A DNA stretch of 64,000 bases. Origin: Escherichia coli (lineage in GTDB: Bacteria; Pseudomonadota; Gammaproteobacteria; Enterobacterales; Enterobacteriaceae). The DNA is taken from NCBI RefSeq assembly GCF_003018235.1, contig NZ_CP027437.1, one strand, 5' to 3'. The translations under genes and the position numbers were made by a program. Under the pieces are notes generated by a model. It saw only the letters and a list, made by a program, of their open reading frames with translations. It did no database searches and had not been told where the DNA came from. This document shows positions 1,713-39,459 of this stretch, in pieces; within the stretch, counting starts at the first letter, position 1, and every line of letters begins with the position of its first letter.

Positions 1713-1751
1713 GCCAGAGAAATCCCTTGCTATCGGGTAAACCTATCGCTA

Positions 1752-1776
1752 GGATTAGCAATCATTATCATTTAGA
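1752..1776. promoter_or_regulatory. Second Fur box-like site immediately upstream of fhuF
   Basis: gattagcaatcattatcattt matches Fur consensus GATAATGATAATCATTATC in 3' half. Confidence 0.45.
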
Positions 1777-1790
1777 TTACTATCCCGATT

Positions 1791-2579: not shown

Positions 2580-2582
2580 AAG

Positions 2583-2612
2583 CACTGCCGGGGAAGTAAA
2601 CCCGGCATCATG
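2583..2612. terminator. Hairpin (gccgggg..cccggc) between convergent fhuF and bglJ
   Basis: GC stem with short loop directly after fhuF stop. Confidence 0.4.
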
Positions 2613-2616
2613 CGGA

Positions 2617-4532: not shown

Positions 4533-4595
4533 ATGATACAAATGGATTCTCATTATCTGAACAATACGCAGCACGTCTATGACAAAGGGCGAGTT

Positions 4596-5366
4596 ATGCA
4601 AACTGAGCAACAGCGAGCCGTAACACGGCTTTGTATCCAGTGTGGATTATTTCTTTTGCAACATGGTGCGGAAAGCGCGTTGGTTGATGAGCTTTCCTCA
4701 CGACTGGGTCGGGCGTTGGGAATGGACAGCGTCGAAAGTTCTATCTCTTCGAACGCCATAGTGCTGACAACCATTAAAGATGGGCAATGCCTGACATCGA
4801 CACGAAAAAATCACGATCGCGGCATTAATATGCATGTGGTGACTGAAGTCCAGCACATTGTGATTCTGGCGGAGCATCATCTGCTGGATTACAAAGGTGT
4901 AGAGAAACGATTTAGCCAAATTCAGCCATTACGTTACCCGAGATGGCTGGTAGCCTTAATGGTCGGCCTTTCTTGCGCCTGTTTCTGTAAACTCAATAAA
5001 GGTGGCTGGGATGGTGCCGTCATCACCTTCTTTGCCAGTACGGTCGCGATGTATATCCGCCAGCTGCTGGCACAACGTCATCTTCATCCACAGATCAACT
5101 TTTGCCTCACCGCTTTCGCCGCCACCACCATTTCCGGTTTGCTTTTGCAACTTCCCACTTTCAGCAATACACCCACTATCGCGATGGCCGCCAGCGTTCT
5201 GCTGCTGGTGCCGGGTTTTCCGTTGATTAATGCCGTCGCCGATATGTTTAAAGGCCACATCAATACCGGGCTGGCACGCTGGGCGATCGCCAGTCTGCTG
5301 ACACTGGCTACCTGCGTCGGCGTAGTAATGGCACTGACGATTTGGGGGCTACGCGGATGGGTGTGA
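4596..5366 (+). CDS. yjjP: Inner-membrane protein YjjP (ThrE-like, putative)
   Basis: ORF 4533..5366; start placed at internal Met (MQTEQQRAV); multiple hydrophobic segments. Confidence 0.8.
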
Positions 5367-5830
5367 TCGAATTTCTGTTTGCATTGGCGCAGGATATGAT
5401 CCTCGCCGCCATTCCTGCGGTCGGCTTTGCGATGGTGTTCAACGTTCCCGTGCGGGCGTTACGCTGGTGTGCGCTGCTTGGCTCGATAGGTCATGGTTCC
5501 CGAATGATCTTAATGACCAGCGGGCTGAATATTGAGTGGTCAACTTTTATGGCTTCTATGCTGGTCGGCACCATTGGTATTCAATGGTCGCGCTGGTATC
5601 TGGCGCATCCGAAAGTGTTTACCGTGGCGGCTGTTATTCCTATGTTCCCTGGCATATCGGCTTATACCGCAATGATTTCGGCGGTAAAAATCAGCCAGCT
5701 AGGTTACAGCGAACCGTTGATGATTACCCTGTTAACCAACTTTCTTACAGCTTCATCAATTGTTGGTGCGTTATCCATCGGTCTTTCCATTCCTGGATTA
5801 TGGTTGTACCGCAAGCGCCCTCGCGTATAA
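5357..5830 (+). CDS. yjjB: Inner-membrane protein YjjB
   Basis: ORF 5342..5830, start at MGVIEFLF; hydrophobic throughout; overlaps yjjP stop. Confidence 0.8.
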
Positions 5831-5936
5831 AATTGCCTCGCTTAAGCACACGGATGAGAGACAGCCTCCTCTCCTCCGTGTGTTACTATAAAAGTTATCT
5901 CCCTTCTCGTTCATCGTTCCATATTTGAGAAACAGT

Positions 5937-6476
5937 ATGTCTTCCAGAGTTTTGACCCCGGACGTCGTTGGTATTGACGCCCTGGTACACGATCACCAAA
6001 CCGTTCTGGCAAAAGCTGAAGGCGGTGTGGTTGCCGTATTTGCTAACAATGCCCCGGCGTTTTATGCCGTCACGCCTGCACGCCTGGCTGAACTGCTAGC
6101 GCTGGAAGAAAAGCTGGCGCGTCCGGGAAGCGATGTCGCTCTGGACGATCAACTCTATCAGGAACCGCAAGCTGCTCCCGTAGCTGTACCCATGGGGAAA
6201 TTCGCCATGTATCCGGACTGGCAACCCGATGCCGACTTTATCCGCCTGGCGGCGCTATGGGGCGTGGCACTAAGAGAGCCGGTGACCACCGAAGAACTGG
6301 CCTCATTCATTGCCTACTGGCAGGCGGAAGGTAAAGTCTTTCACCATGTGCAGTGGCAACAAAAACTGGCGCGCAGCCTGCAAATCGGTCGTGCCAGCAA
6401 CGGCGGACTGCCGAAACGAGATGTGAATACGGTCAGTGAACCTGACAGCCAAATTCCACCAGGATTCAGAGGGTAA
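5937..6476 (+). CDS. dnaT: Primosomal protein DnaT
   Basis: ORF 5925..6476, start at [16 protein letters not shown]; immediately precedes dnaC. Confidence 0.9.
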
Positions 6477-6478
6477 CG

Positions 6479-7216
6479 ATGAAAAACGTTGGCGACCTGA
6501 TTCAACGCCTGCAAAAAATGATGCCTGCCCATATCAAACCTGCTTTCAAAACGGGTGAAGAACTACTGGCCTGGCAGAAAGAACAAGGGGCGATCCGCTC
6601 CGCCGCTCTCGAACGTGAAAATCGGGCGATGAAAATGCAGCGCACCTTTAACCGCTCCGGTATTCGTCCACTGCATCAGAACTGCTCCTTTGAGAACTAT
6701 CGCGTTGAGTGTGAAGGGCAGATGAATGCGTTAAGCAAAGCGCGCCAGTATGTCGAAGAGTTTGACGGCAACATCGCCAGCTTCATCTTTTCTGGTAAGC
6801 CAGGAACCGGCAAAAACCATCTGGCGGCGGCAATCTGCAACGAGCTGCTGCTACGCGGTAAATCCGTATTGATCATCACCGTGGCCGATATTATGTCGGC
6901 GATGAAAGATACCTTCAGGAATAGCGGTACCAGCGAAGAACAACTGCTTAACGATCTGAGCAACGTTGATCTGCTGGTGATCGATGAGATCGGCGTGCAG
7001 ACCGAATCGAAATACGAAAAAGTGATCATCAACCAGATCGTCGATCGCCGCTCTTCTTCCAAACGCCCAACCGGGATGCTGACCAACAGTAATATGGAAG
7101 AGATGACCAAGTTGCTGGGCGAACGCGTGATGGACCGTATGCGCCTGGGTAACAGTTTGTGGGTGATCTTCAACTGGGATAGCTACCGTAGCCGGGTAAC
7201 GGGTAAAGAGTATTAA
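6479..7216 (+). CDS. dnaC: DNA replication helicase loader DnaC (AAA+ ATPase)
   Basis: 245-aa ORF with Walker A GKPGTGKNHLAAA and Walker B LLVIDEIG. Confidence 0.95.
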   Translation: MKNVGDLIQRLQKMMPAHIKPAFKTGEELLAWQKEQGAIRSAALERENRAMKMQRTFNRSGIRPLHQNCSFENYRVECEGQMNALSKARQYVEEFDGNIASFIFSGKPGTGKNHLAAAICNELLLRGKSVLIITVADIMSAMKDTFRNSGTSEEQLLNDLSNVDLLVIDEIGVQTESKYEKVIINQIVDRRSSSKRPTGMLTNSNMEEMTKLLGERVMDRMRLGNSLWVIFNWDSYRSRVTGKEY

Positions 7217-7261
7217 TCCCCGTTTCTGGCGGTATACTGCGACACAATTCCACCTTGAGTA

Positions 7262-7759
7262 ATGATGATGAAAACTGTTAAACATCTTCTGTGCTGTGCC
7301 ATTGCCGCCAGCGCATTAATTTCCACCGGGGTGCATGCTGCGTCCTGGAAAGATGCGCTCTCCAGCGCCGCCAGCGAACTTGGCAACCAAAACAGCACGA
7401 CACAGGAAGGCGGTTGGTCGCTCGCGTCATTAACTAACTTGCTTAGCAGCGGAAACCAGGCCTTAAGCGCAGATAACATGAACAATGCCGCAGGCATTCT
7501 GCAATACTGCGCGAAGCAAAAGCTGGCTTCGGTAACCGATGCCGAAAACATCAAGAATCAGGTACTGGAAAAACTGGGCCTGAACAGTGAAGAGCAAAAA
7601 GAAGACACCAATTATCTGGATGGCATTCAGGGTTTGCTGAAAACTAAAGATGGTCAGCAACTCAATCTGGATAATATCGGAACGACTCCGCTGGCAGAAA
7701 AGGTGAAAACCAAAGCCTGCGATCTGGTGTTAAAGCAGGGGCTGAACTTCATTTCCTGA
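7262..7759 (+). CDS. yjjA: Secreted protein YjjA (signal peptide)
   Basis: 165-aa ORF with N-terminal signal sequence MMKTVKHLLCCAIAASALISTGVHA. Confidence 0.8.
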   Translation: MMMKTVKHLLCCAIAASALISTGVHAASWKDALSSAASELGNQNSTTQEGGWSLASLTNLLSSGNQALSADNMNNAAGILQYCAKQKLASVTDAENIKNQVLEKLGLNSEEQKEDTNYLDGIQGLLKTKDGQQLNLDNIGTTPLAEKVKTKACDLVLKQGLNFIS

Positions 7760-8012
7760 ACCGCGAAACGCCGCGTTTTAGCTGTTACCCGGCTGACGCG
7801 GCTCTCTCCTGCCCTTTTCCCTGCTCCTGGACGGTTTTCCCCCTGTTACACGGGAAGCGACCGTAATCAAAAAAGTCTGTTTATAAACTAATTCCTAACA
7901 ACATCGCATTTTTTTGACACTAGAATTGCAGCAATATGGCGACGCCATTACATTGTGCTTCTCAAAAAGCTTAAACGTTGGCTAAACGGCCCGGTTTAGT
8001 GAGGATCGCCCG

Positions 8013-10304
8013 TTGTCAGAACTACTCTCTTTCGCCCTTTTTCTCGCCTCTGTGCTGATTTACGCATGGAAAGCGGGACGTAACACCTGGTGGTTTGCAG
8101 CCACATTAACGGTACTGGGGCTATTTGTCGTTTTAAATATCACCCTGTTTGCCAGCGACTATTTTACTGGCGATGGTATTAACGACGCGGTTCTCTATAC
8201 CTTAACCAACAGCCTGACCGGTGCTGGTGTCAGTAAATACATCCTGCCTGGTATCGGCATTGTGCTGGGGCTGACGGCGGTGTTCGGTGCGCTGGGCTGG
8301 ATCCTGCGCCGTCGTCGCCATCATCCGCACCATTTTGGTTACAGCCTGCTGGCACTCTTACTGGCGCTGGGTTCAGTGGATGCCAGCCCGGCATTTCGTC
8401 AGATAACGGAACTAGTGAAATCCCAGTCACGCGACGGCGACCCGGACTTTGCGGCTTATTATAAAGAGCCGTCGAAAACTATCCCTGACCCGAAACTCAA
8501 CCTGGTTTATATCTACGGCGAAAGTCTCGAGCGGACCTATTTTGATAACGAGGCTTTCCCGGATCTCACGCCTGAACTGGGCGCGTTGAAAAATGAAGGC
8601 CTGGATTTCAGCCACACGCAGCAGCTGCCAGGAACGGATTACACGATTGCGGGCATGGTGGCTTCTCAGTGCGGCATACCGCTGTTTGCCCCCTTTGAAG
8701 GCAACGCCTCCGCCTCTGTCTCCAGCTTCTTCCCGCAGAACATCTGTCTGGGAGATATCCTGAAAAACTCGGGTTATCAGAACTATTTCGTGCAGGGCGC
8801 AAATCTGCGTTTTGCAGGTAAAGATGTGTTCCTGAAATCGCACGGCTTCGATCACTTATACGGCTCAGAAGAGCTGAAAAGCGTGGTGGCCGACCCGCAC
8901 TATCGCAACGACTGGGGATTCTACGACGATACCGTTCTCGATGAAGCGTGGAAAAAGTTTGAAGAGCTTTCCCGTTCTGGTCAGCGATTCTCACTGTTTA
9001 CCCTGACGGTCGATACCCATCACCCGGATGGTTTTATCTCGCGCACCTGTAACCGCAAAAAATATGATTTTGACGGTAAGCCTAATCAGTCATTCAGCGC
9101 GGTAAGTTGCAGTCAGGAGAATATCGCGACGTTTATCAACAAAATCAAAGCGTCACCGTGGTTTAAAGATACCGTCATCGTCGTCTCTTCTGACCATTTA
9201 GCGATGAACAACACGGCGTGGAAATACCTTAATAAACAGGATCGCAATAACCTGTTTTTTGTCATCCGTGGCGACAAGCCGCAGCAAGAGACGCTGGCGG
9301 TGAAGCGTAACACGATGGATAACGGCGCGACGGTGCTGGACATTCTCGGTGGCGATAACTATCTCGGACTTGGTCGTAGCAGTTTATCCGGGCAGTCAAT
9401 GTCAGAAATCTTCCTCAATATCAAAGAGAAAACATTGGCGTGGAAGCCGGATATCATCCGCCTGTGGAAATTCCCTAAAGAGATGAAAGAGTTCACCATC
9501 GACCAGCAGAAAAACATGATTGCCTTCTCGGGTAGCCATTTCCGTTTGCCGCTGCTGTTGCGGGTTTCAGACAAACGCGTGGAACCGCTGCCGGAAAGCG
9601 AATACTCAGCACCGCTGCGTTTCCAGCTGGCCGATTTCGCTCCACGCGACAATTTCGTCTGGGTTGACCGTTGCTACAAGATGGCACAACTTTGGGCTCA
9701 GGAACTGGCACTCTCCACCGACTGGTGTGTCTCGCAAGGGCAGCTTGGCGGTCAGCAAATTGTCCAGCATGTTGATAAAACAATGTGGAAGGGCAAAACG
9801 GCATTTAAAGATACGGTCATCGACATGGCGCGTTACAAAGGCAATGTCGATACGCTGAAGATTGTTGATAACGATATTCGCTACAAAGCCGACAGTTTCA
9901 TCTTTAACGTCGCCGGTGCGCCAGAAGAGGTGAAACAGTTTAGCGGGATTTCCCGTCCGGAGTCGTGGGGCCGCTGGTCCAACGCGCAACTGGGCGACGA
10001 AGTAAAAATCGAGTACAAGCATCCGCTGCCGAAGAAATTTGACCTGGTGATTACCGCCAAAGCATACGGCAATAACGCCAGCCGTCCTATTCCGGTACGC
10101 GTAGGCAATGAAGAACAAACTCTTGTGCTGGGCAATGAAGTGACCACCACCACGCTGCATTTCGATAACCCAACCGATGCCGACACGCTGGTAATTGTGC
10201 CGCCGGAACCTGTCTCAACCAACGAAGGGAATATCCTCGGACACTCGCCGCGTAAGCTCGGGATCGGCATGGTAGAAATTAAAGTGGTAGAACGTGAAGG
10301 ATAA
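8013..10304 (+). CDS. opgB: Phosphoglycerol transferase I (osmoregulated periplasmic glucan biosynthesis), sulfatase-family, N-terminal TM helices
   Basis: 763-aa ORF, probable TTG start; membrane N-terminus then sulfatase-like domain. Confidence 0.9.
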
Positions 10305-14141: not shown

Positions 14142-15806
14142 TTAAAACGTTTCCCAGTTCTCCCCGCTATCTGCCACTGCCATTTTACGCGGCGTAGCTG
14201 GCGTCACGTTTTTTACCACAGCCGATGTTTCACGCTGCTGTTGCTGCTGTTGCTGAATCCGGAACACTGCCACAGCTTCGGTCAGGCGACTGGCCTGCTC
14301 TTCCAGCGCGGCGGCGGCAGCGGCAGATTCTTCCACCAGCGCAGCGTTCTGTTGAGTTACCCGGTCCATCTCAGCAACCGCTAAGCCAACCTGATCGATA
14401 CCACGGCTCTGCTCATCAGAAGCAGAAGCAATTTCGCCCATAATGTCCGTCACGCGGGTCACAGCGCTGACAATCTCCGCCATTGTTTCCCCGGCGCTTT
14501 CGACCAGCGTAGAGCCAACATCCACTTTCCCCACCGAGTCTTCAATCAGGCTTTTAATTTCGCGAGCCGCCTGGGCGCTGCGCTGGGCCAGATTACGCAC
14601 TTCGCCCGCGACCACCGCAAAACCGCGCCCTTGCTCACCCGCACGCGCAGCCTCAACCGCCGCGTTCAAAGCCAGAATATTGGTCTGGAAGGCAATGCCG
14701 TCAATTACGCTGATAATATCGGCGATTTTCTGCGAACTGGTGGAGATATCGCGCATGGTCTGCACCACGTTATCCACCACTTTGCCGCCGCGTTGCGCCG
14801 TTTCGGAAGCACTTAACGCCAGGTGGCTGGCCTGACGCGCATTTTCGGCGTTCTGCTTCACCGTTGCGGTCAGTTGCTCCATGCTGGCTGCCGTCTCTTC
14901 CAGCGAAGCGGCCTGTTGCTCGGTGCGCGAAGAGAGATCGTTATTGCCGGTGGCGATTTCGCTGGCACCGCTATAGATGGCATTGGCCCCGTTGCGCACA
15001 TCACCGACGGTACGCATCAGCTCTCCCTGCATATGGCGCAAACTCTCTGCCAGTTGCCCCATCTCATTAGAGCCATCCACCTCAATCGGTTTCACCAGAT
15101 CGCCGCCTGCAATATGACGAATGCTGTCAATCAGGCGATTCATTGGCGCTACCAACGAGGCTTTAATACCGAACCAGACGGCGAAGATGACCGCCAGTAC
15201 GACGATCATCACGCCCACCAGGATCCACATCGCCTGGCTGTAGGAGGCATTATTATCGCTGACGGCGATATCATAGAGCCGATCGTTTTGCTCCATGTAA
15301 GCCACATACTGCTTCTCGAAACCGTCCTGATATCCCTGGGTCGGCTGATCAAAGAACTCGTTGATTTTGCCTGCACCTAACAGTTGGATCAGCTCCGCCA
15401 GCGCATTGTGATAAATATCGTAATTACGTTTGATCTCTGCCGCTGCGGCGGTGCTCTGACGCGGGTCACGCGGCAACGCTTCGTAATCCGCCCAGTTTTT
15501 TTCCGCCTGTTTCAGCGAAATACTGGCACTCTGCATCAGCTCAGCAACGGTTGAACCGCTACCAATATTATTCTGATCCATCATGTAGCGGATACCCGCG
15601 CGGTTGAGGGTGTTACGCGTCTGCAACAACGCGACCCAGCTGCCATTCAGCGTGGATTGCTGCTGGCGAATGGTTTGTAAAACAGTGAAATTTTCTTTGT
15701 CATTCTTTAAGGCATTAAAGAACAGACCGCCTGATGTCAGTTGTAAAAGGCCAAAAACGGCCAAAACCAGCAGTAAGCTGGTCACAATTTTGATACGTTT
15801 TAACAT
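14142..15806 (-). CDS. tsr: Methyl-accepting chemotaxis protein I (serine chemoreceptor)
   Basis: 554-aa ORF with two TM segments, HAMP, methylation helices ([17 protein letters not shown]) and C-terminal NWETF pentapeptide. Confidence 0.95.
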
Positions 15807-15924
15807 GTTTTCTCTTTCCTGTGGACCGATGCAAGATTTTCGGCCTGGAAAGGAAAAACTTTATGAAAAGGTGTAACCCGCCATCCATGGAAAAACCAGG
15901 CGCTGGTTATCAGATATTAAAAAG

Positions 15925-16371
15925 TTATTCATTATCGCCCGGGATGTCTTCTTGTCGGGAATTACCCAGAGCAATAAATTCCTCTAACAGATGGGTTAAC
16001 TGTTGCATTTTCTCGGCAGTAAACTGAGCTTCAATCTGCCGATAGGCCTCTTCAATCTGTGTCTGAGCGCGGTTATACAGCGCCTGCCCCTCTTTGGTCA
16101 GCGAGATATAGAGCTTCCGCTGATCATTGATCGGCTTTAATCGCAACACTAAACCGTCGCGTTCCATCCGCGTAAGGATCCCGGTCAGGCTTGGGCGCAA
16201 AATGCAGGCGCGATACGCCAGATCGTGAAAATCCATTGATGGGCTTTCCGCCAGAATACGCACGATGCGCCACTGTTGCTCAGTCAAATTATGCCGTTTA
16301 ACGATTGGGCGAAAATAACTCATCGCCGCTTCTCGCGCCTGGAGCAACGCAATGGTTAGAGAGTCGTGCAT
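15925..16371 (-). CDS. hpaR: MarR-family repressor of homoprotocatechuate degradation
   Basis: ORF 15925..16452, start at MHDSLTIALLQ; MarR wHTH; divergent from hpaG. Confidence 0.8.
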   Translation of the reverse strand: MHDSLTIALLQAREAAMSYFRPIVKRHNLTEQQWRIVRILAESPSMDFHDLAYRACILRPSLTGILTRMERDGLVLRLKPINDQRKLYISLTKEGQALYNRAQTQIEEAYRQIEAQFTAEKMQQLTHLLEEFIALGNSRQEDIPGDNE

Positions 16372-21519: not shown

Positions 21520-22323
21520 ATGGAAAACAGTTTTAAAGCGGCGCTGAAAGCAGGCCGCCCGCAGATCGGATTATGGCTGGGGCTAAGTAGCAGCTACAGC
21601 GCAGAGTTACTAGCCGGAGCAGGATTCGACTGGTTATTGATCGACGGTGAGCACGCGCCGAATAACGTGCAAACCGTGCTCACCCAACTACAGGCGATTG
21701 CGCCCTACCCCAGCCAGCCGGTAGTACGTCCGTCGTGGAACGATCCAGTGCAAATCAAACAACTGCTGGACGTCGGCACACAAACCTTACTGGTGCCGAT
21801 GGTACAAAACGCCGACGAAGCCCGTGAAGCGGTACGCGCCACCCGTTATCCCCCCGCCGGTATTCGCGGTGTGGGCAGTGCGCTGGCTCGCGCCTCGCGC
21901 TGGAATCGCATTCCTGATTACCTGCAAAAAGCCAACGATCAAATGTGCGTGCTGGTGCAGATCGAAACGCGTGAGGCAATGAAGAAATTACCGCAGATTC
22001 TGGACGTGGAAGGGGTCGACGGCGTGTTTATCGGCCCGGCGGATCTGAGCGCCGATATGGGTTATGCCGGTAATCCACAGCACCCGGAAGTACAGGTCGC
22101 CATTGAGCAGGCGATCGTGCAGATCCGCGAAGCGGGCAAAGCGCCGGGGATCCTGATCGCCAATGAGCAACTGGCAAAACGCTATCTGGAACTGGGCGCG
22201 CTGTTTGTCGCCGTCGGCGTTGACACCACCCTGCTCGCCCGCGCCGCCGAAGCGTTGGCAGCACGGTTTGGTAATAGTTCTTCTATTTCGATGGCGAAGC
22301 AAAACAACAACTCTGTCTACTAA
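21520..22323 (+). CDS. hpaI: 4-hydroxy-2-oxo-heptane-1,7-dioate aldolase (HpcH/HpaI class II aldolase)
   Basis: Start at [12 protein letters not shown] with AAGGAGAG RBS inside longer ORF 21379..22323. Confidence 0.85.
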
Positions 22324-22344
22324 ACGTACGATGTGGAGCGCATC

Positions 22345-23700
22345 ATGACGACCTCTACCCTGCAATATAAAGATAATAAAACTGTTGAAATTGAACATCG
22401 TGTCATTAATAAATTATTTCGTCGCCTAATCATTTTTCTTTTTATTCTGTTTGTTTTTTCGTTTCTTGATCGCATCAATATAGGATTTGCCGGACTGACA
22501 ATGGGCAAGGATCTTGGCCTGACGTCCACAATGTTTGGCCTCGCCGCGACACTCTTTTATGTCACGTACGTCATGTGCGGGATCCCCAGTAATATGATGT
22601 TAGCGAAAATTGGCGCTCGTCGATGGATCGCTGGGATCATGGTGGTCTGGGGAGTTGCTTCCACCTGCACAATGTTTGCAACAAGCCCCGAAACACTCTA
22701 TCTACTGCGTATGCTGGTTGGTATTGCTGAGGCGGGTTTTTTACCTGGTATTTTGGTTTATCTGACCTGGTGGTTCCCGGCATATCATCGGGCCAGAGCC
22801 AATGCCTTATTTATGATAGCGATGCCAGTCACTATGATGCTGGGATCGATCCTTTCAGGCTACATTCTGGCCTTGGATGGACTGTGGAATCTAAAAGGCT
22901 GGCAATGGCTCTTTTTGCTGGAAGGTCTGCCATCGGTCATTCTTGGTGTCGTCACCTGGTTTTATCTCAACGACACACCAGACCAGGCGACCTGGCTTGA
23001 TGAAAACGAAAAACAGGCTTTAAAAACGATGATTCTCCGTGAACAAGAGAGTGCATTTGCCCATGCATCTGTTCCACGCTCAACCTTACGTGAAGTCCTG
23101 ACCCCAGCCATCATGCTATATACACTTGCTTATTTTTGCCTGACCAATACTCTGAGTGCGATTAATATCTGGACGCCGCAAATCCTACAGAGTTTCAATA
23201 CTGGCAGTAGCAACATCATGATTGGTTTGCTGGCGGCCATCCCCCAATTCTGCACAATTTTTGGCATGATCTGGTGGAGTCGTCGTTCCGACCGTCTTAA
23301 AGAACGCAAAAAGCATACGATTCTTCCCTACCTGTTTGCCGCTGCCGGATGGTTACTCGCTTCTGCGACTGATCACAGCCTCATTCAACTGAGCGGCATC
23401 ATTATGGCCTCAATGGGATCATTTACCGCAATGGCTATCTTTTGGACGACACCGGATCAAGTAATAAGCTTGCAATCGCGTGCCGTTGCGATGGCTGTCA
23501 TCAATGCTGTCGGTAATGTAGGTTCAGCAGTCAGTCCATTACTTATCGGTATTTTGAAAGATGCAACCGGCAGTTTTAGCTCAGGTTTGTGGTTTGTAGC
23601 AGGATTACTGGTACTGGGCGCGTTAGTCATGACCCGAATTCCTATGGGGAGTCGGGAACACTCTCTTTCATCTGAACTTATCGCACCAAAACCGCAATAA
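22345..23700 (+). CDS. hpaX: MFS 4-hydroxyphenylacetate permease
   Basis: ORF 22333..23700, start at MTTSTLQYK; 12-TM MFS profile. Confidence 0.85.
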   Translation: MTTSTLQYKDNKTVEIEHRVINKLFRRLIIFLFILFVFSFLDRINIGFAGLTMGKDLGLTSTMFGLAATLFYVTYVMCGIPSNMMLAKIGARRWIAGIMVVWGVASTCTMFATSPETLYLLRMLVGIAEAGFLPGILVYLTWWFPAYHRARANALFMIAMPVTMMLGSILSGYILALDGLWNLKGWQWLFLLEGLPSVILGVVTWFYLNDTPDQATWLDENEKQALKTMILREQESAFAHASVPRSTLREVLTPAIMLYTLAYFCLTNTLSAINIWTPQILQSFNTGSSNIMIGLLAAIPQFCTIFGMIWWSRRSDRLKERKKHTILPYLFAAAGWLLASATDHSLIQLSGIIMASMGSFTAMAIFWTTPDQVISLQSRAVAMAVINAVGNVGSAVSPLLIGILKDATGSFSSGLWFVAGLLVLGALVMTRIPMGSREHSLSSELIAPKPQ

Positions 23701-23706
23701 GGAGTC

Positions 23707-24600
23707 ATGATGTCCAGTGAAGCTATCTTTGAACATGGTTATGAAAATATTGATTTGGTCCGGGAATATGATGCCCGCTACGCTGGTGAAGATGTGCATT
23801 ATGAAACATTTGCCAGGTTAGCGAATTTCTTTGGACGCGATATGCGCCCTCACTGGCACGATAGATATTTTCAACTCCATTATCTGGTCACTGGACGCAT
23901 TACTTTACAGCTGGATGAGCACTTCTATTCTGTGCGCGCACCGCTTTTTGTACTAACACCACCATCGGTGCCACATACTTTCTTTACTGAGCCTGATAGC
24001 GACGGGCATGTTCTGACCGTACGTCAGGAGTTAATTTGGCCCCTGGTAGAAAAGCTCTGGCCTGGTAGTGGAGATGCCGCAATGCTACAAGGTATCTGTC
24101 TATCGCTGGAGGGAATGGAACATACACTGGCGGCATTAAATCATTATTGGCCGATAATATCCCTGGAGTTTCAACAAAATAAGCCAGGACGGGAAATTCT
24201 ATTGCAATCACTGGCGCAAAGTATTTTTACAATCCTACTGCGTGAAGCACCACCAAATGATATTTCAACATGCAGCGTGCGCGGCGAGATGTGTTTATTC
24301 CAGAAGTTTAATCGGCTGATTGACGAAAATTATCGCCAACATTTAATGGTCCCTGAATATGCAGCAATGCTCGGTATGAGTGAATCACGGCTTACCGAGC
24401 TGTGCCGACGTTTTGCCAATCAATCGCCGAAGAGATTGATTTTCGAACGAGTGAGCCGGGAAGCCAGACGGCTTCTGCTCTATAGCGAGCAAAGCATCAA
24501 CCAGATTGCCCTTGATCTTGGCTACAAAGATCCCGCCTATTTCGCCCGTTTTTTCAACCGAATGATGGGTTGCTCACCAACACAATTCCGTGGTCGCTGA
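23707..24600 (+). CDS. hpaA: AraC/XylS-family activator of hpaBC
   Basis: 297-aa ORF with C-terminal AraC HTH (LGYKDPAYFARFFNRMMGCSP). Confidence 0.85.
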   Translation: MMSSEAIFEHGYENIDLVREYDARYAGEDVHYETFARLANFFGRDMRPHWHDRYFQLHYLVTGRITLQLDEHFYSVRAPLFVLTPPSVPHTFFTEPDSDGHVLTVRQELIWPLVEKLWPGSGDAAMLQGICLSLEGMEHTLAALNHYWPIISLEFQQNKPGREILLQSLAQSIFTILLREAPPNDISTCSVRGEMCLFQKFNRLIDENYRQHLMVPEYAAMLGMSESRLTELCRRFANQSPKRLIFERVSREARRLLLYSEQSINQIALDLGYKDPAYFARFFNRMMGCSPTQFRGR

Positions 24601-24626
24601 CCATTTATCAACCTGAGAGACTCGAC

Positions 24627-25565
24627 ATGAAAATATCTTTACGCTCACTATTTGTGGCGTGCCTGATTGCGCCAGTGGCATTCACCTACGCCTCCGAACC
24701 GCAAGAAATGAAAATTGTACTACTTGGAACGAAAGGTGGCCCTTCTTTATTAAAAGCTGACCGTTTGCCGATGGCAACGGCACTTATTATTGGCAATAAA
24801 ACATGGTTAATTGATGCTGGTTACGGGGCCAGCTTACAACTGGTAAAAAATAATATTCCACTGCGCCAGATTGATAATATTTTACTCACCCATTTACACA
24901 GTGATCATATTCTGGACTATCCCTCAGTCTTAATGAATGCATGGGCTAGCGGTCTGCAGGACAAAACTATTCATGTGTTCGGTCCGCCAGGCACCCGAGC
25001 CATGACCGCTGCCAGTTGGCAGGTCTTCGATCGGGACATCACACTGCGTATGGAAGAAGAAGGAAAACCCGATCCTCGCAAGCTCGTTACAGCTCAAGAT
25101 GTTGGTGAAGGCGTAGTTTATAAAGATGATACCGTGACCGTGACTGCATTAAAGGTTCCTCATTCTCCTTTCCCTGACGGTGAGGCTTTTGCTTATCGCT
25201 TCGACACACAAGGCAAGCGAATTGTCTTCTCAGGAGATACCTCGTACTTTCCCCCACTGGCAACTTTCTCAGAAGGCGCTGATATACTTGTGCATGAGGC
25301 CGTACATGAGCCCTCCGTCGCTAAGCTGGCAGACAGTATTGGCAATGGTAAAACACTGGCAAAAGCCATTGCTTCTCACCATACGACTATTGAGGATGTA
25401 GGCAAAATTGCCAATGAAGCAAAAGTGAAAAAACTCATCCTTAGCCACCTGGTACCAATCACCGTTCCGGATGAAACATGGAAGCAAGAAGCACAGAAAA
25501 ACTATTCAGGCCCTATCGTCGTTGGTCATGAAAATATGACGATTACCATTCCATTCGCCCCATAA
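24627..25565 (+). CDS. Secreted metallo-beta-lactamase-fold hydrolase (HxHxDH Zn motif), function unknown
   Basis: ORF 24570..25565, start at MKISLRSLFVACLIAPVAFTYA (signal peptide); THLHSDHILDYP motif; lies between hpaA and hpaB. Confidence 0.6.
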   Translation: MKISLRSLFVACLIAPVAFTYASEPQEMKIVLLGTKGGPSLLKADRLPMATALIIGNKTWLIDAGYGASLQLVKNNIPLRQIDNILLTHLHSDHILDYPSVLMNAWASGLQDKTIHVFGPPGTRAMTAASWQVFDRDITLRMEEEGKPDPRKLVTAQDVGEGVVYKDDTVTVTALKVPHSPFPDGEAFAYRFDTQGKRIVFSGDTSYFPPLATFSEGADILVHEAVHEPSVAKLADSIGNGKTLAKAIASHHTTIEDVGKIANEAKVKKLILSHLVPITVPDETWKQEAQKNYSGPIVVGHENMTITIPFAP

Positions 25566-25791
25566 AAAATTCCGTCCCCGTTAGCCCTTGTTAGCGGGGA
25601 ATATTATGATTTGCCTTACTGCAAGTTGATCACGATCGCAGTTTACTATTTAACTCCACCTTGCTGGCGAAAAGTACCAACGTTCGCCTGAAACGTCTCT
25701 TCCCGACAACCGCGTTCAACGCTTCAATTAAATAACAAAAACAACACACAAAATTAACAATCGTATTCCGATTAATACTGTAGAGGTCGAC

Positions 25792-27371: not shown

Positions 27372-27884
27372 ATGCAATTAGATGAACAACGCCTGCGCTT
27401 TCGTGACGCAATGGCCAGCCTGTCGGCAGCGGTAAATATTATCACCACCGAGGGCAACGCCGGGCAATGCGGGATTACGGCAACGGCTGTCTGCTCGGTC
27501 ACGGATACACCACCGTCGCTGATGGTGTGCATTAACGCCAACAGTGCGATGAACCCGGTTTTTCAGGGCAACGGTAAGTTGTGCGTCAACGTCCTCAACC
27601 ATGAGCAGGAACTGATGGCACGCCACTTCGCGGGCATGACAGGCATGGCGATGGAAGAGCGTTTTAGCCTCTCATGCTGGCAAAAAGGTCCGCTGGCGCA
27701 GCCGGTGCTAAAAGGTTCGCTGGCCAGTCTTGAAGGTGAGATCCGCGATGTGCAGGCAATTGGCACACATCTGGTGTATCTGGTGGAGATTAAAAACATC
27801 ATCCTCAGTGCAGAAGGTCACGGACTTATCTACTTTAAACGCCGTTTCCATCCGGTGATGCTGGAAATGGAAGCTGCGATTTAA
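27372..27884 (+). CDS. hpaC: 4-hydroxyphenylacetate 3-monooxygenase reductase component (NAD(P)H:flavin oxidoreductase)
   Basis: 170-aa ORF with flavin reductase-like fold, tight spacing after hpaB. Confidence 0.9.
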   Translation: MQLDEQRLRFRDAMASLSAAVNIITTEGNAGQCGITATAVCSVTDTPPSLMVCINANSAMNPVFQGNGKLCVNVLNHEQELMARHFAGMTGMAMEERFSLSCWQKGPLAQPVLKGSLASLEGEIRDVQAIGTHLVYLVEIKNIILSAEGHGLIYFKRRFHPVMLEMEAAI

Positions 27885-27892
27885 GCTCCAGA

Positions 27893-27925
27893 CCCTTCAC
27901 GTATTCGTCGAAGGGGCATTTTTAT
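27893..27925 (+). terminator. Rho-independent terminator after hpaC
   Basis: cccttc..gaaggg stem followed by gcatttttatt. Confidence 0.55.
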
Positions 27926-27941
27926 TGTGATCTCAATCACA
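27926..27941. promoter_or_regulatory. CRP binding site (TGTGA-N6-TCACA) upstream of btsT
   Basis: tgtgatctcaatcaca is a perfect match to both CRP half-sites. Confidence 0.6.
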
Positions 27942-27969
27942 TATCCACCCGATGAATAATTCTTGCCCA

Positions 27970-28018
27970 ACCGCTCACCGCCATTCCTGACCGCTTACAT
28001 CCCTAAAATAACCACTCA
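27970..28018 (+). promoter_or_regulatory. Three direct repeats ACC(G/A)CT(C/T)A, the BtsR (YehT) LytTR response-regulator motif, in btsT promoter
   Basis: accgctca, accgctta, accactca spaced ~20-21 bp apart. Confidence 0.55.
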
Positions 28019-28273
28019 GTTATTTACCTTACTTTACGCGCGCGTAACTCTGGCAACATCACTGCAGGATAGCGGTCAATTTACCTCCTCAAACGCAACG
28101 CAAACCTAGAACGGCTTCGGCCTATGATTAACAAATTACTCTATGGATTTTGGTTTGCAGGAAGGCAGCAAGTGAGTGAACCAGGAGCTTACAACAGTAA
28201 GTGACAGGGGTGAACGAACCCAGCTGCGGCACCTGTAAGCCAAAAGACGACGAGTAAAATGCCAGGTTTTACT

Positions 28274-30424
28274 ATGGATACGAAAAAACTATTCAAGCAC
28301 ATACCCTGGGTGATTCTCGGAATCATCGGTGCATTCTGCCTCGCGGTAGTTGCATTACGTCGGGGGGAGCACGTCAGCGCCCTGTGGATCGTGGTCGCCT
28401 CTGTGTCGGTGTATCTGGTGGCGTATCGCTACTACAGTCTGTACATCGCCCAGAAGGTGATGAAACTCGACCCCACGCGCGCGACGCCTGCGGTTATTAA
28501 CAACGACGGTCTGAACTACGTTCCGACCAACCGTTACGTGTTGTTTGGTCACCACTTCGCCGCTATCGCCGGTGCTGGTCCGCTGGTGGGTCCGGTTCTC
28601 GCCGCGCAGATGGGCTACCTGCCTGGCACGCTGTGGCTGCTGGCGGGGGTAGTGCTGGCCGGTGCGGTACAGGACTTTATGGTGCTGTTTATCTCCTCTC
28701 GCCGTAACGGCGCATCTCTCGGTGAGATGATCAAAGAAGAGATGGGACCAGTACCGGGGACTATCGCGCTGTTTGGCTGTTTCTTAATCATGATCATCAT
28801 CCTCGCCGTCCTGGCGCTGATTGTGGTTAAAGCCCTGGCCGAAAGTCCGTGGGGTGTCTTCACCGTTTGCTCAACCGTACCGATTGCGCTGTTTATGGGT
28901 ATCTACATGCGCTTTATCCGTCCGGGGCGTGTGGGTGAAGTCTCTGTCATTGGTATCGTGCTGCTGGTTGCCTCTATCTACTTCGGTGGCGTGATTGCTC
29001 ACGATCCGTACTGGGGTCCGGCACTGACCTTTAAAGACACCACCATTACCTTCGCGCTGATTGGCTATGCGTTTGTTTCCGCACTGCTGCCGGTGTGGCT
29101 GATCCTCGCACCGCGCGACTATCTGGCAACCTTCCTGAAAATCGGTGTTATCGTCGGCCTGGCACTGGGTATCGTGGTGTTGAACCCGGAACTGAAAATG
29201 CCTGCGATGACCCAGTACATTGACGGTACTGGCCCGCTGTGGAAAGGCGCTCTGTTCCCGTTCCTGTTCATCACCATCGCCTGTGGTGCGGTATCTGGCT
29301 TCCACGCGCTGATCTCTTCCGGTACGACGCCGAAACTGCTGGCTAACGAAACCGACGCGCGTTTCATTGGCTACGGCGCAATGCTGATGGAGTCCTTCGT
29401 GGCGATTATGGCGCTGGTTGCTGCGTCCATCATCGAACCGGGTCTTTACTTCGCGATGAACACCCCGCCTGCTGGCCTTGGCATCACCATGCCTAACCTG
29501 CATGAAATGGGTGGCGAGAACGCGCCGATCATCATGGCGCAGCTGAAAGACGTTACCGCACACGCGGCAGCGACCGTCAGCTCCTGGGGCTTCGTGATTT
29601 CGCCAGAGCAGATCCTGCAAACCGCGAAAGACATTGGTGAGCCTTCTGTCCTGAACCGTGCAGGTGGTGCGCCGACGCTGGCGGTAGGTATCGCTCACGT
29701 GTTCCACAAAGTGCTGCCGATGGCTGACATGGGCTTCTGGTATCACTTCGGTATTCTGTTCGAAGCCCTGTTCATCCTGACCGCGCTGGATGCGGGTACC
29801 CGTTCTGGCCGCTTTATGCTGCAAGATCTGCTGGGTAACTTCATCCCGTTCCTGAAAAAAACCGACTCCCTGGTTGCCGGTATCATCGGTACGGCGGGCT
29901 GTGTGGGTCTGTGGGGCTACCTGCTGTATCAGGGCGTGGTCGATCCGCTGGGCGGCGTTAAGAGCCTGTGGCCGCTGTTCGGTATCTCCAACCAGATGCT
30001 GGCAGCCGTGGCGCTGGTACTGGGTACCGTTGTGCTGATTAAGATGAAGCGCACCCAATACATCTGGGTAACTGTTGTTCCGGCTGTATGGTTGCTTATC
30101 TGCACCACCTGGGCGCTGGGCCTGAAACTGTTCAGCACCAACCCGCAGATGGAAGGCTTCTTCTACATGGCAAGCCAGTACAAAGAGAAGATTGCTAACG
30201 GTACTGACCTGACGGCGCAGCAGATTGCCAACATGAACCACATCGTTGTGAACAACTACACCAACGCAGGCCTGAGTATTCTGTTCCTGATTGTGGTGTA
30301 CAGCATCATCTTCTACGGTTTCAAAACCTGGCTTGCGGTGCGTAACAGCGACAAACGTACTGACAAAGAAACACCGTACGTTCCAATCCCGGAAGGCGGC
30401 GTGAAGATCTCTTCGCACCACTAA
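28274..30424 (+). CDS. btsT: CstA-family pyruvate/H+ symporter
   Basis: ORF 28259..30424, start at MDTKKLFKH; ~716 aa polytopic membrane protein; recognised YjiY sequence. Confidence 0.9.
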   Translation: MDTKKLFKHIPWVILGIIGAFCLAVVALRRGEHVSALWIVVASVSVYLVAYRYYSLYIAQKVMKLDPTRATPAVINNDGLNYVPTNRYVLFGHHFAAIAGAGPLVGPVLAAQMGYLPGTLWLLAGVVLAGAVQDFMVLFISSRRNGASLGEMIKEEMGPVPGTIALFGCFLIMIIILAVLALIVVKALAESPWGVFTVCSTVPIALFMGIYMRFIRPGRVGEVSVIGIVLLVASIYFGGVIAHDPYWGPALTFKDTTITFALIGYAFVSALLPVWLILAPRDYLATFLKIGVIVGLALGIVVLNPELKMPAMTQYIDGTGPLWKGALFPFLFITIACGAVSGFHALISSGTTPKLLANETDARFIGYGAMLMESFVAIMALVAASIIEPGLYFAMNTPPAGLGITMPNLHEMGGENAPIIMAQLKDVTAHAAATVSSWGFVISPEQILQTAKDIGEPSVLNRAGGAPTLAVGIAHVFHKVLPMADMGFWYHFGILFEALFILTALDAGTRSGRFMLQDLLGNFIPFLKKTDSLVAGIIGTAGCVGLWGYLLYQGVVDPLGGVKSLWPLFGISNQMLAAVALVLGTVVLIKMKRTQYIWVTVVPAVWLLICTTWALGLKLFSTNPQMEGFFYMASQYKEKIANGTDLTAQQIANMNHIVVNNYTNAGLSILFLIVVYSIIFYGFKTWLAVRNSDKRTDKETPYVPIPEGGVKISSHH

Positions 30425-36304: not shown

Positions 36305-36505
36305 CACGTATACACTTCATCCTTCAGGCTGCCTCTGCGTTGGCTGCGCTCGTTCACCCCGGTCACGTACTTCTGTACGCTCCCGGGGATTCACTCACTT
36401 GCCGCCTTGATGCAACCTGAATGATTTTGTGTATATTACCCTCGGCAATTTCTTCTTCTACGGCCCCAAACAATGCGGGCCGTTGTTTAATTTACGGAAC
36501 TCACA

Positions 36506-38095
36506 ATGAACAATAACGATCTGGTCGCGAAGCTGTGGAAGCTGTGCGACAACCTGCGCGATGGCGGCGTTTCCTATCAAAACTACGTCAATGAACTCGC
36601 CTCGCTGCTGTTTTTGAAAATGTGTAAAGAGACCGGGCAGGAAGCGGAATACCTGCCGGAAGGTTACCGCTGGGATGACCTGAAATCCCGCATCGGCCAG
36701 GAGCAGTTGCAGTTCTACCGAAAAATGCTCGTGCATTTAGGCGAAGATGACAAAAAGCTGGTACAGGCAGTTTTTCATAATGTTAGTACCACCATCACCG
36801 AGCCGAAACAAATAACCGCACTGGTCAGCAATATGGATTCACTGGACTGGTACAACGGCGCGCACGGTAAGTCGCGCGATGACTTCGGCGATATGTACGA
36901 AGGGCTGCTGCAGAAGAACGCCAACGAAACCAAGTCTGGTGCAGGCCAGTACTTCACCCCGCGTCCGCTGATTAAAACCATTATTCATCTGCTGAAACCG
37001 CAGCCACGTGAAGTGGTACAGGACCCGGCAGCGGGTACGGCGGGCTTTTTGATTGAAGCCGACCGCTACGTTAAGTCGCAGACCAATGATCTGGACGACC
37101 TTGATGGCGACACGCAGGATTTCCAAATCCACCGCGCGTTTATCGGCCTCGAACTGGTGCCCGGCACCCGTCGTCTGGCGCTGATGAACTGCCTGCTGCA
37201 CGATATTGAAGGCAACCTCGACCACGGCGGCGCAATCCGTCTGGGCAACACTCTGGGTAGCGACGGTGAAAACCTGCCGAAGGCGCATATTGTCGCCACT
37301 AACCCGCCGTTTGGCAGCGCCGCAGGCACCAACATTACCCGCACCTTTGTTCACCCGACCAGCAACAAACAGTTGTGCTTTATGCAGCATATTATTGAAA
37401 CGCTGCATCCCGGCGGTCGTGCGGCGGTGGTTGTGCCGGATAACGTGCTGTTTGAAGGCGGCAAAGGCACCGACATTCGTCGTGACCTGATGGATAAGTG
37501 TCATCTGCACACCATTCTGCGTCTGCCGACCGGTATTTTTTACGCTCAGGGCGTGAAGACCAACGTGCTGTTCTTTACCAAAGGGACGGTGGCGAACCCG
37601 AATCAGGATAAGAACTGTACCGATGATGTGTGGGTGTATGACCTGCGTACCAATATGCCGAGTTTCGGCAAGCGCACGCCGTTTACCGACGAGCATTTGC
37701 AGCCGTTTGAGCGCGTGTATGGCGAAGACCCGCACGGTTTAAGCCCGCGTACTGAAGGAGAATGGAGTTTTAACGCCGAAGAGACGGAAGTTGCCGACAG
37801 CGAAGAGAACAAAAATACCGATCAGCATCTTGCTACCAGCCGCTGGCGCAAGTTCAGCCGTGAGTGGATCCGCACCGCGAAATCCGATTCGCTGGATATC
37901 TCCTGGCTGAAAGATAAAGACAGTATTGATGCCGACAACCTGCCGGAGCCGGATGTGTTAGCGGCAGAAGCGATGGGCGAACTGGTACAGGCGCTGTCTG
38001 AACTGGATGCGCTGATGCGTGAACTGGGGGCGAGCGATGAGGCGGATGCGCAGCGCCAGTTGCTGGAAGAAGCATTTGGTGGGGTGAAGGAATGA
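36506..38095 (+). CDS. hsdM: Type I restriction-modification N6-adenine DNA methyltransferase subunit (HsdM)
   Basis: 529-aa ORF with SAM-binding and catalytic NPPF motif (TNPPFGSA). Confidence 0.95.
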   Translation: MNNNDLVAKLWKLCDNLRDGGVSYQNYVNELASLLFLKMCKETGQEAEYLPEGYRWDDLKSRIGQEQLQFYRKMLVHLGEDDKKLVQAVFHNVSTTITEPKQITALVSNMDSLDWYNGAHGKSRDDFGDMYEGLLQKNANETKSGAGQYFTPRPLIKTIIHLLKPQPREVVQDPAAGTAGFLIEADRYVKSQTNDLDDLDGDTQDFQIHRAFIGLELVPGTRRLALMNCLLHDIEGNLDHGGAIRLGNTLGSDGENLPKAHIVATNPPFGSAAGTNITRTFVHPTSNKQLCFMQHIIETLHPGGRAAVVVPDNVLFEGGKGTDIRRDLMDKCHLHTILRLPTGIFYAQGVKTNVLFFTKGTVANPNQDKNCTDDVWVYDLRTNMPSFGKRTPFTDEHLQPFERVYGEDPHGLSPRTEGEWSFNAEETEVADSEENKNTDQHLATSRWRKFSREWIRTAKSDSLDISWLKDKDSIDADNLPEPDVLAAEAMGELVQALSELDALMRELGASDEADAQRQLLEEAFGGVKE

Positions 38096-39459
38096 GTGCT
38101 GGGAAATTGCCGGAGGGGTGGGAACAGATTGAAATAGGCGACATTGCTGATGTCATCTCTGGTGGGACACCAAAATCGGGAGTCGCTGAAAATTTTGCAC
38201 CTTCGGGTGAGGGAGTCGCCTGGCTTACGCCTGCCGATTTGAGCGGTTATAAAGAGAAATATATCTCACATGGTGCCAGAGATTTAACTACACTAGGCTA
38301 TTCCTCTTGTTCAGCAAAACTAATGCCCAAAGGCACTATACTTTTTAGTAGCCGGGCACCGATTGGATATGTTGCTATTGCTGCAAATGAGATTGCGACT
38401 AACCAGGGTTTCAAAAGTTTTGCTTTTCCTTCAGACATTTTTCCTGATTATGCATATTACTTTCTCCGCAACATCAGACATATTGCAGAGGAAATGGGCA
38501 CAGGAACAACTTTTAAAGAAATTTCTGGTAGTTCTGCGAAAACATTACCATTTGTTCTTGTACCGTTTGCCGAACAAAAAATCATCGCTGAAAAACTCGA
38601 TACGCTGCTGGCACAGGTAGACAGCACCAAAGCACGTCTTGAGCAAATCCCACAAATCCTGAAACGTTTTCGTCAGGCGGTTCTGGGTGCAGCGGTGAGA
38701 GGAAAACTAACTGAAGACTGGAGAGATAATTCAAGCCTGTCTGGGTGGAGAGAAGGCAAACTTGGGGAGTTTATAAAAAAACCAAGTTACGGAACGTCAT
38801 CTAAGTCTAATAAAGAAGGACTCATTCCTGTATTAAGAATGGGCAATCTTCAGGGAGGAAAGTTGGACTGGACGGATCTAGTCTATACGTCAGATACCAT
38901 AGAAATTGAAAAGTATAAACTTGAGTACAATGATGTATTATTCAATCGTACAAATAGTCCTGAACTTGTCGGGAAAACAGCCATATATAAATCAGAGCAA
39001 CCAGCTATTTATGCAGGTTATTTGATTAGGGTTCAATGTTTACCTGATTTAAACCCTGACTATCTTAACTACCATTTAAATAGCATTTTGGGGAGACAAT
39101 ATTGCTATTCAGTTAAATCTGATGGGGTCAGTCAATCAAATATTAATGCACAGAAATTAATTGCATACCCAATAACTGTTCCCCCCCTTCCCGAACAAGC
39201 TGAAATCGTTCGCCGCGTCGAGCAACTCTTCGCCTACGCCGACACAATAGAAAAACAGGTCAACAACGCCTTAGCCCGCGTCAACAATCTGACGCAATCC
39301 ATCCTGGCAAAAGCGTTCCGTGGTGAACTCACCGCCCAGTGGCGGGCCGAAAACCCGGAATTAATCAGCGGTGAAAACAGCGCCGCCGCGTTGCTGGAGA
39401 AAATCAAAGCTGAACGCGCAGCCAGCGGGGGTAAAAAAGCCTCGCGTAAAAAGTCCTGA
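38092..39459 (+). CDS. hsdS: Type I R-M specificity subunit HsdS, family IA conserved framework with two divergent target-recognition domains
   Basis: 455-aa ORF overlapping hsdM stop; conserved N-terminus, central and C-terminal EcoKI-like framework; variable blocks (~38130-38560, ~38700-39180) are AT-rich and unlike K-12. Confidence 0.9.
   Translation: MSAGKLPEGWEQIEIGDIADVISGGTPKSGVAENFAPSGEGVAWLTPADLSGYKEKYISHGARDLTTLGYSSCSAKLMPKGTILFSSRAPIGYVAIAANEIATNQGFKSFAFPSDIFPDYAYYFLRNIRHIAEEMGTGTTFKEISGSSAKTLPFVLVPFAEQKIIAEKLDTLLAQVDSTKARLEQIPQILKRFRQAVLGAAVRGKLTEDWRDNSSLSGWREGKLGEFIKKPSYGTSSKSNKEGLIPVLRMGNLQGGKLDWTDLVYTSDTIEIEKYKLEYNDVLFNRTNSPELVGKTAIYKSEQPAIYAGYLIRVQCLPDLNPDYLNYHLNSILGRQYCYSVKSDGVSQSNINAQKLIAYPITVPPLPEQAEIVRRVEQLFAYADTIEKQVNNALARVNNLTQSILAKAFRGELTAQWRAENPELISGENSAAALLEKIKAERAASGGKKASRKKS

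Follow-up and report, generated by a model that had tools for sequence, protein, structure and literature searches.

The closest described counterpart of the locus considered here is the yjiY (btsT) promoter of Escherichia coli K-12, the target for BtsS/BtsR (also called YehU/YehT). In published descriptions this promoter is said to carry two perfect repeats, and the BtsR (YehT) motif, which reportedly goes back to work by Kraxenberger and coworkers in 2012, is given as ACC[G/A]CT[C/T]A, arranged as direct repeats about 13 bp apart. LytTR sites comprise two repeats of 9 to 11 nt with 11 to 13 nt between them (PMC4847170). btsT is the sole known BtsR target, requires cAMP-CRP, and is subject to repression by LeuO and to translational control by CsrA (PMC5431176, PMC7730263, PMC5936718); a K-12 btsT promoter fusion is inactive after loss of crp (PMC7730263). 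Two further systems are instructive. At the yhjX promoter, served by the paralogous LytTR regulator YpdB (PyrR), direct repeats are likewise 21 nt apart, expression depends on the activator, and the gene specifies a pyruvate-related transporter, but the motif, the regulator, and the gene are different; the published yhjX oligonucleotide reads GTCATTCATT, GGCATTTCAT, and GGCATTTCAT, the first of these being, by our own reading, a degenerate third repeat another 21 nt upstream. The cstA gene, which encodes a paralogous pyruvate transporter, resembles btsT in being CRP-dependent and translationally repressed by CsrA, and its CRP site lies at an unusual distance upstream of where transcription starts, but cstA has no BtsR repeats and is described as under sigma-70, CRP, and Fis control (PMC7730263). 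Finally, ERIC (IRU) elements, one of which lies in the btsT leader described below, are imperfect palindromes of about 127 bp (PMC3184786, a review that covers Hulton 1991, Sharples & Lloyd 1990, and De Gregorio 2005).

The segment at positions 27926 to 28273 of the 64-kb stretch of E. coli DNA that we analyzed (the window) is the native btsT (yjiY) promoter and 5′ leader and is thus an already known feature; its identity to the published YehT fragment, together with the known regulation of btsT, means that a known promoter has been re-identified. It shares with K-12 the gene, the two promoter-proximal repeats (R2 and R3), and, downstream of these, the promoter and the leader up to 28131, and the two sequences are 94% identical over 27971 to 28131. 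In K-12, too, a perfect CRP palindrome is positioned 44 nt from the first repeat (R1), start to start. The window departs from K-12 in four respects: R1 is perfect (ACCGCTCA) rather than GCCGCTCA, the CRP core and the 28-nt spacer between CRP site and R1 belong to a different haplotype, the upstream neighbor is a co-directional hpaC rather than a divergent tsr, and the leader carries an ERIC element of about 122 nt.

The flanking genes are securely identified. The btsT gene (28274 to 30424, plus strand, ATG at 28274) encodes a pyruvate/H+ symporter of 716 aa, of which the first 519 residues match K-12 BtsT at 517 of 519 positions; RefSeq names on matching records support the assignment, as does synteny in strain TC24, where yjiX and yjiA follow btsT. 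An in-frame ATG at 28259 would yield a 721-aa open reading frame and is missing in other genera. A Shine-Dalgarno-like CCAGG is present at 28262 to 28266 (plus strand), unchanged 3′ of the ERIC element, and CCAGGTTTTACTATGGATAC is invariant in the alignment. Upstream, hpaC (27372 to 27884, plus strand) encodes the reductase subunit of 4-hydroxyphenylacetate 3-monooxygenase and is the last gene of the hpa cluster; it scores 384.6 bits against the NCBIfam equivalog NF012030 (cut-off, 315), and the TC24 record, 99.8% identical, has the same RefSeq annotation. The regulatory genes btsS and btsR are located elsewhere on the chromosome, outside the window.

The first-pass annotation of this DNA had pointed to a perfect CRP site followed by three BtsR-type repeats, and both are there. 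The cAMP-CRP consensus site TGTGATCTCAATCACA, to which we assign no strand, occupies 27926 to 27941 and is the sole perfect TGTGA-N6-TCACA in the window, in which 0.07 would be expected; at least one such palindrome arose in 7 of 100 shuffles of the window. Its center (27933.5) is 40 bp from that of R1. The three repeats, R1 (ACCGCTCA, 27970 to 27977), R2 (ACCGCTTA, 27990 to 27997), and the promoter-proximal R3 (ACCACTCA, 28011 to 28018), lie on the plus strand, after the hpaC stop (27884) and before the btsT start (28274). Their 12- and 13-nt spacers fall within the range published for LytTR sites (PMC4847170); center-to-center distances along CRP-R1-R2-R3 are 40, 20, and 21 bp, which spaces the repeats by roughly two turns of the helix. 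The two strands of the window together hold 14 matches to ACCRCTYA (6.0 expected), and R1 to R3 form the window's only phased same-strand triple. R2 and R3 are each identical to their K-12 counterparts, and the window matches the published K-12 'yjiY YehT bs' oligonucleotide exactly from CTGACCGCTTA through ACCACTCAGTTA, the stretch containing R2 and R3, while the position of R1 also falls within that oligonucleotide (PMC4847170). The attribution of the repeats to BtsR is upheld both by this identity and by conservation of their spacing across the Enterobacterales, and the proposed distance of about 260 bp to the btsT start is correct for R3, from whose end (28018) it is 255 nt to the ATG.

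The CRP site had also been placed right after an hpaC terminator, which is borne out in part. A terminator-like hairpin at 27893 to 27915 and a T-run at 27919 to 27925 follow hpaC on the plus strand, and the T-run abuts the CRP site; the hairpin has a folding energy of −12.6 kcal/mol (z, −1.95, RNA fold). A strict terminator scan made no call here because 3 nt separate the stem from the U-run, and on the folding prediction an intrinsic terminator is plausible. In strain 2020CK-00188, the hairpin arms, the T-run, and the CRP site recur 3′ of an amino acid deaminase gene.

Comparison across species indicates that this arrangement is general. A scan with one genome per species gave 80 btsT loci, 77 of which had enough upstream sequence; together with the window and K-12 these make 79 scored sequences, drawn from Escherichia, Salmonella, Citrobacter, Klebsiella, Raoultella, Kluyvera, Kosakonia, Enterobacter, Lelliottia, Pluralibacter, Trabulsiella, Pantoea, Erwinia, Rahnella, and others. 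Every one of the 79 has the CRP-R1-R2-R3 array. A CRP-like site with no more than two mismatches begins 43 to 45 nt 5′ of the start of R1 in every locus (44 nt in 70 of 79), independently of whether the upstream neighbor is hpaC, tsr, or another gene; mismatches number zero in 30 loci, one in 46, and two in 3, and the half-site columns of the alignment are about 90% conserved over the 79 sequences. R2 starts 20 nt from R1 in 74 of 79 loci, and R3 starts 20 or 21 nt from R2 in 78 of 79. R1 is perfect in 55 loci and has one mismatch in 23, R2 is perfect in 70, and R3 in 56 (each of 79). Thus, the perfect three-repeat form is the commoner state across species, and the K-12 R1 (GCCGCTCA) is a departure from it. 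The 28-nt spacer between the CRP site and R1 has diverged in sequence yet kept a constant length, the mark of selection acting both on the sites and on how they are phased along the helix. The version of the CRP site seen in the window (TGTGATCTCAATCACA) is the form found in most genera; in K-12 the 44-nt offset is kept by another perfect palindrome (TGTGATATGAATCACA), and E. albertii carries the K-12-type segment.

Downstream of R3, the conserved blocks ATTTACC, ACTTTACGCGCGC, and TCTGGCAA at 28022 to 28060 (plus strand; column conservation, 0.6 to 0.9 across the 79 sequences) presumably contain the core promoter and start region. Promoter and terminator scans of both strands from 27700 to 28500 gave no matches and no consensus sigma-70 promoter, as expected for an activator-dependent promoter. 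Because LytTR activators generally bind adjoining the −35 region, TTTACC (28023 to 28028) could serve as the −35 element, which would put the start near 28058; the −10 candidates TACTTT (28030 to 28035) and AACTCT (28046 to 28051) are both unconvincing. We found no mapped btsT transcription start in the accessible literature, where one genome-wide set reports 3′ ends only and another does not include yjiY, and both the promoter position and transcription of the ERIC element are therefore things we infer. A sigma-54 promoter (TGGCAA-N7-TGCA, 28051 to 28066) was considered and rejected: the TGGCA block is conserved at 0.7 to 0.9, but the −12 element is not (T28063, 0.2; G28064, 0.1), Citrobacter and Salmonella have CC at that position, and BtsR is not known to be an enhancer-binding protein.

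The ancestral part of the btsT 5′ leader (28061 to 28135, plus strand) contains a GGA at 28067 to 28069, a conserved CAATTTACCTCCTCAAAC block, and the GGCTTCGGCC hairpin at 28113 to 28122. Pairing of CUGGCA (28050 to 28055) with UGCCAG at the Shine-Dalgarno sequence was also rejected, the partner not being conserved in Citrobacter, Salmonella, or Klebsiella. An Rfam scan recovered no riboswitch or known leader RNA, and gave one spurious lncRNA match.

The length of the leader had been linked with the neighboring hpa island, and here a different origin is evident: about 120 nt of it is an ERIC/IRU miniature inverted-repeat element (28136 to 28257, plus strand) that is absent from K-12, the alignment to which stops at 28131 and restarts at 28259. 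The element is about 122 nt long, lies about 10 nt 5′ of the Shine-Dalgarno sequence, and folds into a long imperfect hairpin (−51.9 kcal/mol; z, −6.64). Its center reads GTGAA-CCAGGAGCTTACA-AC-AGTAAGTGACAGGGGTGAACG. The first part, GTGAA(-TCC)CCAGGAGCTTACA, is the ERIC1R complement (18 of 21 positions, with a 3-nt deletion), and AGTAAGTGACAGGGGTGAACG, directly 3′ of it in the expected relative order, is ERIC2 (19 of 21); both primer sequences were confirmed in published papers. Against the Rfam family V_AS5 the full-length element scores 20.2 bits, which is below threshold (gathering score, 96). Members of this dispersed family occur in 5425 of 5426 E. coli genomes, at a median of 10 sites in each (range, 2 to 16), and a second, partial copy lies in the window at 36343 to 36415, in the hsdR-hsdM spacer. 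Comparison of the filled site (...AAAT-TA-CTC...GAG-TA-AAATGCC) with the empty K-12 site (...CAA-TA-CATGCC) is consistent with insertion at TA, with the caveat that the flanks are substituted and the alignment ambiguous. In its primer-site core, multicopy nature, intergenic position, and probable placement in a transcribed region, the btsT-leader element is like known ERIC/IRU elements, and its putative TA flanks would be a further likeness; it differs in sitting within a 5′ leader ahead of a ribosome-binding site, whereas the reviewed effect concerns an ERIC downstream of a gene (PMC3184786), and it has a 3-nt core deletion relative to the copies in E. albertii and Escherichia sp. E1V33. The accessible literature yielded no report of an ERIC adjoining yjiY or hpaC.

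Folding predictions suggest that the hairpin is self-contained and does not alter access to the ribosome-binding site: opening energies with and without the ERIC are 7.4 versus 7.5 kcal/mol for one assumed 5′ end and 6.4 versus 6.8 kcal/mol for another. A consensus scan gave no promoter-like or terminator-like sites inside the element. It contributes extra GGA motifs at 28145 to 28147, 28160 to 28162, and 28184 to 28186, all within the hairpin stem, and it more than doubles the gap between the leader GGAs at 28067 to 28069 and 28276 to 28278, from about 90 to about 210 nt.

We examined the distribution of these features in 5426 complete E. coli genomes. The ERIC-bearing btsT leader is present in 2062 (38%), the hpaC-CRP junction in 2065, and the two together in 2060, so that within E. 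coli they are almost perfectly linked. A further 161 genomes, 2020CK-00188 among them, match the hairpin and CRP segment (27908 to 27960) and have no hpaC, and in one genome an IS3-family element replaces the whole CRP, repeat, and promoter region. The strains of the btsT studies that we looked at, MG1655-type K-12 and UTI89, have the ERIC-less tsr-btsT arrangement. Outside E. coli, the ERIC is absent from the btsT leader of most other species; near-identical copies at the same site are found in E. albertii and Escherichia sp. E1V33, where the upstream neighbor is not hpaC, and in Citrobacter portucalensis A60 the site holds a copy that has clearly diverged, set in Citrobacter-type flanks and with no hpaC upstream. 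Conversely, hpaC-CRP-repeats-btsT adjacency without the ERIC is seen at 16 other species loci, in Klebsiella, Raoultella, Pseudocitrobacter, Enterobacter, Lelliottia, and some Citrobacter. Escherichia sp. MOD1-EC7003 retains only the last 37 codons of hpaC, a deletion remnant.

The boundaries of the hpa segment are equally informative. In the window, hpa lies between tsr (start at 15806, minus strand) and btsT, and is missing from K-12, O157:H7, and UTI89. Homology to K-12 stops at 15867, toward tsr, and picks up again only at 27971, within R1, which leaves the CRP site on the hpa side of this breakpoint. Here K-12 carries 133 nucleotides of its own, its CRP palindrome among them; when deaminase-type E. 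coli is the reference, the breakpoint falls near 27908, within the hairpin. The differing breakpoints, together with the distinct CRP segment of K-12 and E. albertii, identify the locus as a mosaic of old haplotypes, and from these sequence comparisons it reads as a product of recombination rather than of simple island insertion. The proposal that an island insertion had left the circuit intact therefore does not stand as worded, as neither the polarity nor the boundary of such an event is shown, the breakpoint falls in R1, and the same junction is found at the 16 other species loci.

Several other accounts of the region merit consideration. Recent insertion of an hpa island upstream of a btsT promoter that stayed intact, with the leader of about 260 nt being part or consequence of that arrangement, would fit both the absence of hpa from K-12, O157:H7, and UTI89 and its tight linkage to the ERIC within E. 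coli, but we regard it as very improbable: the ERIC is about 250 nt from the hpa junction, across sequence that is 94% identical to K-12, and each of the two occurs without the other, hpaC directly 5′ of btsT at the 16 ERIC-less loci and the ERIC without hpa in E. albertii, Escherichia sp. E1V33, and C. portucalensis. Nor does the position of the K-12 breakpoint, at R1 and not upstream of the CRP site, suit this account. That the CRP palindrome acts on the hpa operon or on a divergent or upstream transcript, and not on btsT, could be argued from its abutting the end of the hpaBC unit and from the location of its K-12 counterpart in the divergent tsr-btsT spacer; with the palindrome located 3′ of hpaC, its offset to R1 held at 43 to 45 nt whatever the upstream neighbor, and the activity of the btsT promoter fusion lost in a crp mutant (PMC7730263), there is scarcely any likelihood of this. 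As for chance matches or decayed relics having no function in this allele, the shuffle result and the 14 ACCRCTYA octamers in the window show that single motifs of these kinds do turn up, but the single phased triple and the recurrence of four sites with constant spacing at all 79 loci, amid diverged intervening sequence, effectively refute such an explanation so far as comparative sequence evidence goes, and we give it almost no credence.

An effect of the ERIC is harder to dismiss. The element may materially rewire btsT expression after transcription, by providing an RNase E or RNase III site, by altering GGA spacing, or by supplying extra GGAs for CsrA, and this we consider a possibility, albeit the less likely outcome. 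ERIC copies are mostly seen as neutral passengers, and here both the predicted accessibility of the ribosome-binding site, unchanged by the ERIC, and the confinement of its extra GGA motifs to the hairpin stem count against a strong effect. On the other side are the closeness of a −52 kcal/mol hairpin to the Shine-Dalgarno sequence, the known control of BtsT by CsrA, and the occurrence of the allele in 38% of E. coli genomes, with near-identical copies in E. albertii and Escherichia sp. E1V33. Transcribed ERICs in Yersinia, moreover, have orientation-dependent effects on mRNA stability through RNase E (review, PMC3184786), such that a thermodynamic prediction of no effect at the ribosome-binding site leaves room for a real one. 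The more specific proposition that the ERIC leader is a functional regulatory polymorphism, co-inherited with hpa and altering mRNA processing or CsrA control, is unlikely, if worth keeping in view. Were it true, hpa-positive lineages would tune pyruvate uptake differently from K-12-type lineages, and either a balanced polymorphism of long standing or a hotspot that has taken repeated insertions would account for the recurrence of the ERIC at one TA.

The explanation we favor, and hold to be very probably correct, is that the region is a BtsR- and CRP-activated, CsrA-modulated btsT control region in which an ERIC is transcribed as part of the 5′ leader. Under carbon limitation, cAMP-CRP would bind at 27926 to 27941, as extrapolated from the K-12 literature, and external pyruvate would act through the LytTR response regulator BtsR at R1 to R3, R2 and R3 being the repeats for which this is described. 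R3 would adjoin a weak, activator-dependent core promoter, and from that proximity transcription probably starts about 30 to 60 nt 3′ of R3, near 28045 to 28080. Counted from this presumed start, the ERIC would lengthen the leader from about 95 to about 215 nt, and CsrA, to judge from the literature, would also control BtsT synthesis post-transcriptionally. We infer that the BtsR/CRP circuit works in this allele; most likely, given the folding predictions, its control of btsT is normal, with at most a quantitative post-transcriptional change.

What is new here is so only mildly, namely, a leader allele with an ERIC, carried by 38% of E. coli genomes, and the conservation of a three-repeat architecture. 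Three repeats and a CRP site at fixed spacing constitute a conserved enterobacterial arrangement, of which the model K-12 promoter, with its degenerate R1, is a variant, and the hpa-btsT junction is common to several genera. In more than one-third of sequenced E. coli, the btsT leader is about 120 nt longer through the ERIC, and results obtained with MG1655 and UTI89 may not hold quantitatively for strains B, C, and W and for many wild strains.

Comparison with E. coli TC24, a strain in which hpaC and btsT are arranged as in the window, shows where the surroundings of the btsT leader differ. On the tsr side, the window has a gap of about 120 nt between tsr (start at 15806, minus strand) and the hpa cluster, which begins here with its hpaR end. 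In the otherwise near-identical TC24, hpaR is directly preceded by genes for a recombinase and for phage tail and baseplate proteins; the two sequences are not collinear upstream of hpaR (window 15806-15925 versus 1-8845 of the TC24 sequence, L004). Within the cluster, the hpaX-hpaA portion (22271-25669) is only about 67-69% identical to TC24, and its flanks are 98.6-99.2% identical, which suggests an allele that has diverged or a part of the cluster that was replaced. A further stretch without collinearity to TC24 covers the hsdS region (38095-39193), where the TC24 annotation contains partial, split hsdS pseudogenes.

Strong conservation marks a CAATTTACCTCCTCAAAC block of the btsT leader (28081-28094), in which CCUCC resembles an anti-Shine-Dalgarno sequence; a small GGC-UUCG-GCC hairpin also lies in the leader, at 28113-28122. 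Farther downstream lies the ERIC element (28136-28257), with which the Rfam model V_AS5 (Vibrio antisense RNA AS5) aligns from end to end (28139-28254), at a sub-threshold score. The alignment suggests that V_AS5 models an ERIC-like repeat. A second, partial ERIC-like element is present in the window at 36343-36415, in inverted (minus) orientation with respect to the btsT copy and 81% identical to it across 73 nt, at the equivalent of the TC24 hsdR-hsdM spacer.

Outside Escherichia, Citrobacter portucalensis A60 carries an ERIC copy at the same position in its btsT leader (about 2380-2500 of its btsT locus, L016). This copy is clearly diverged from that of Escherichia and has Citrobacter-type flanks, and its closest relatives have no such copy. 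Either the element inserted independently at this TA in Citrobacter, or the polymorphism is an old one.

Two other loci illustrate natural variation upstream of btsT. In E. coli ABWA45, an IS3-family element (202-1500 of its locus, L003) lies directly 5' of btsT and the match to the window starts only at about 28073; the CRP site (27926-27941), all three BtsR repeats (27970, 27990, and 28011) and the presumed core promoter (28022-28060) are therefore missing, and the locus is a natural promoter replacement. In Escherichia sp. MOD1-EC7003, the final 37 codons are all that is left of hpaC upstream of the CRP site (2118-2228 of its locus, L006). This fragment is a deletion remnant and shows that hpa can disappear from its position upstream of btsT.
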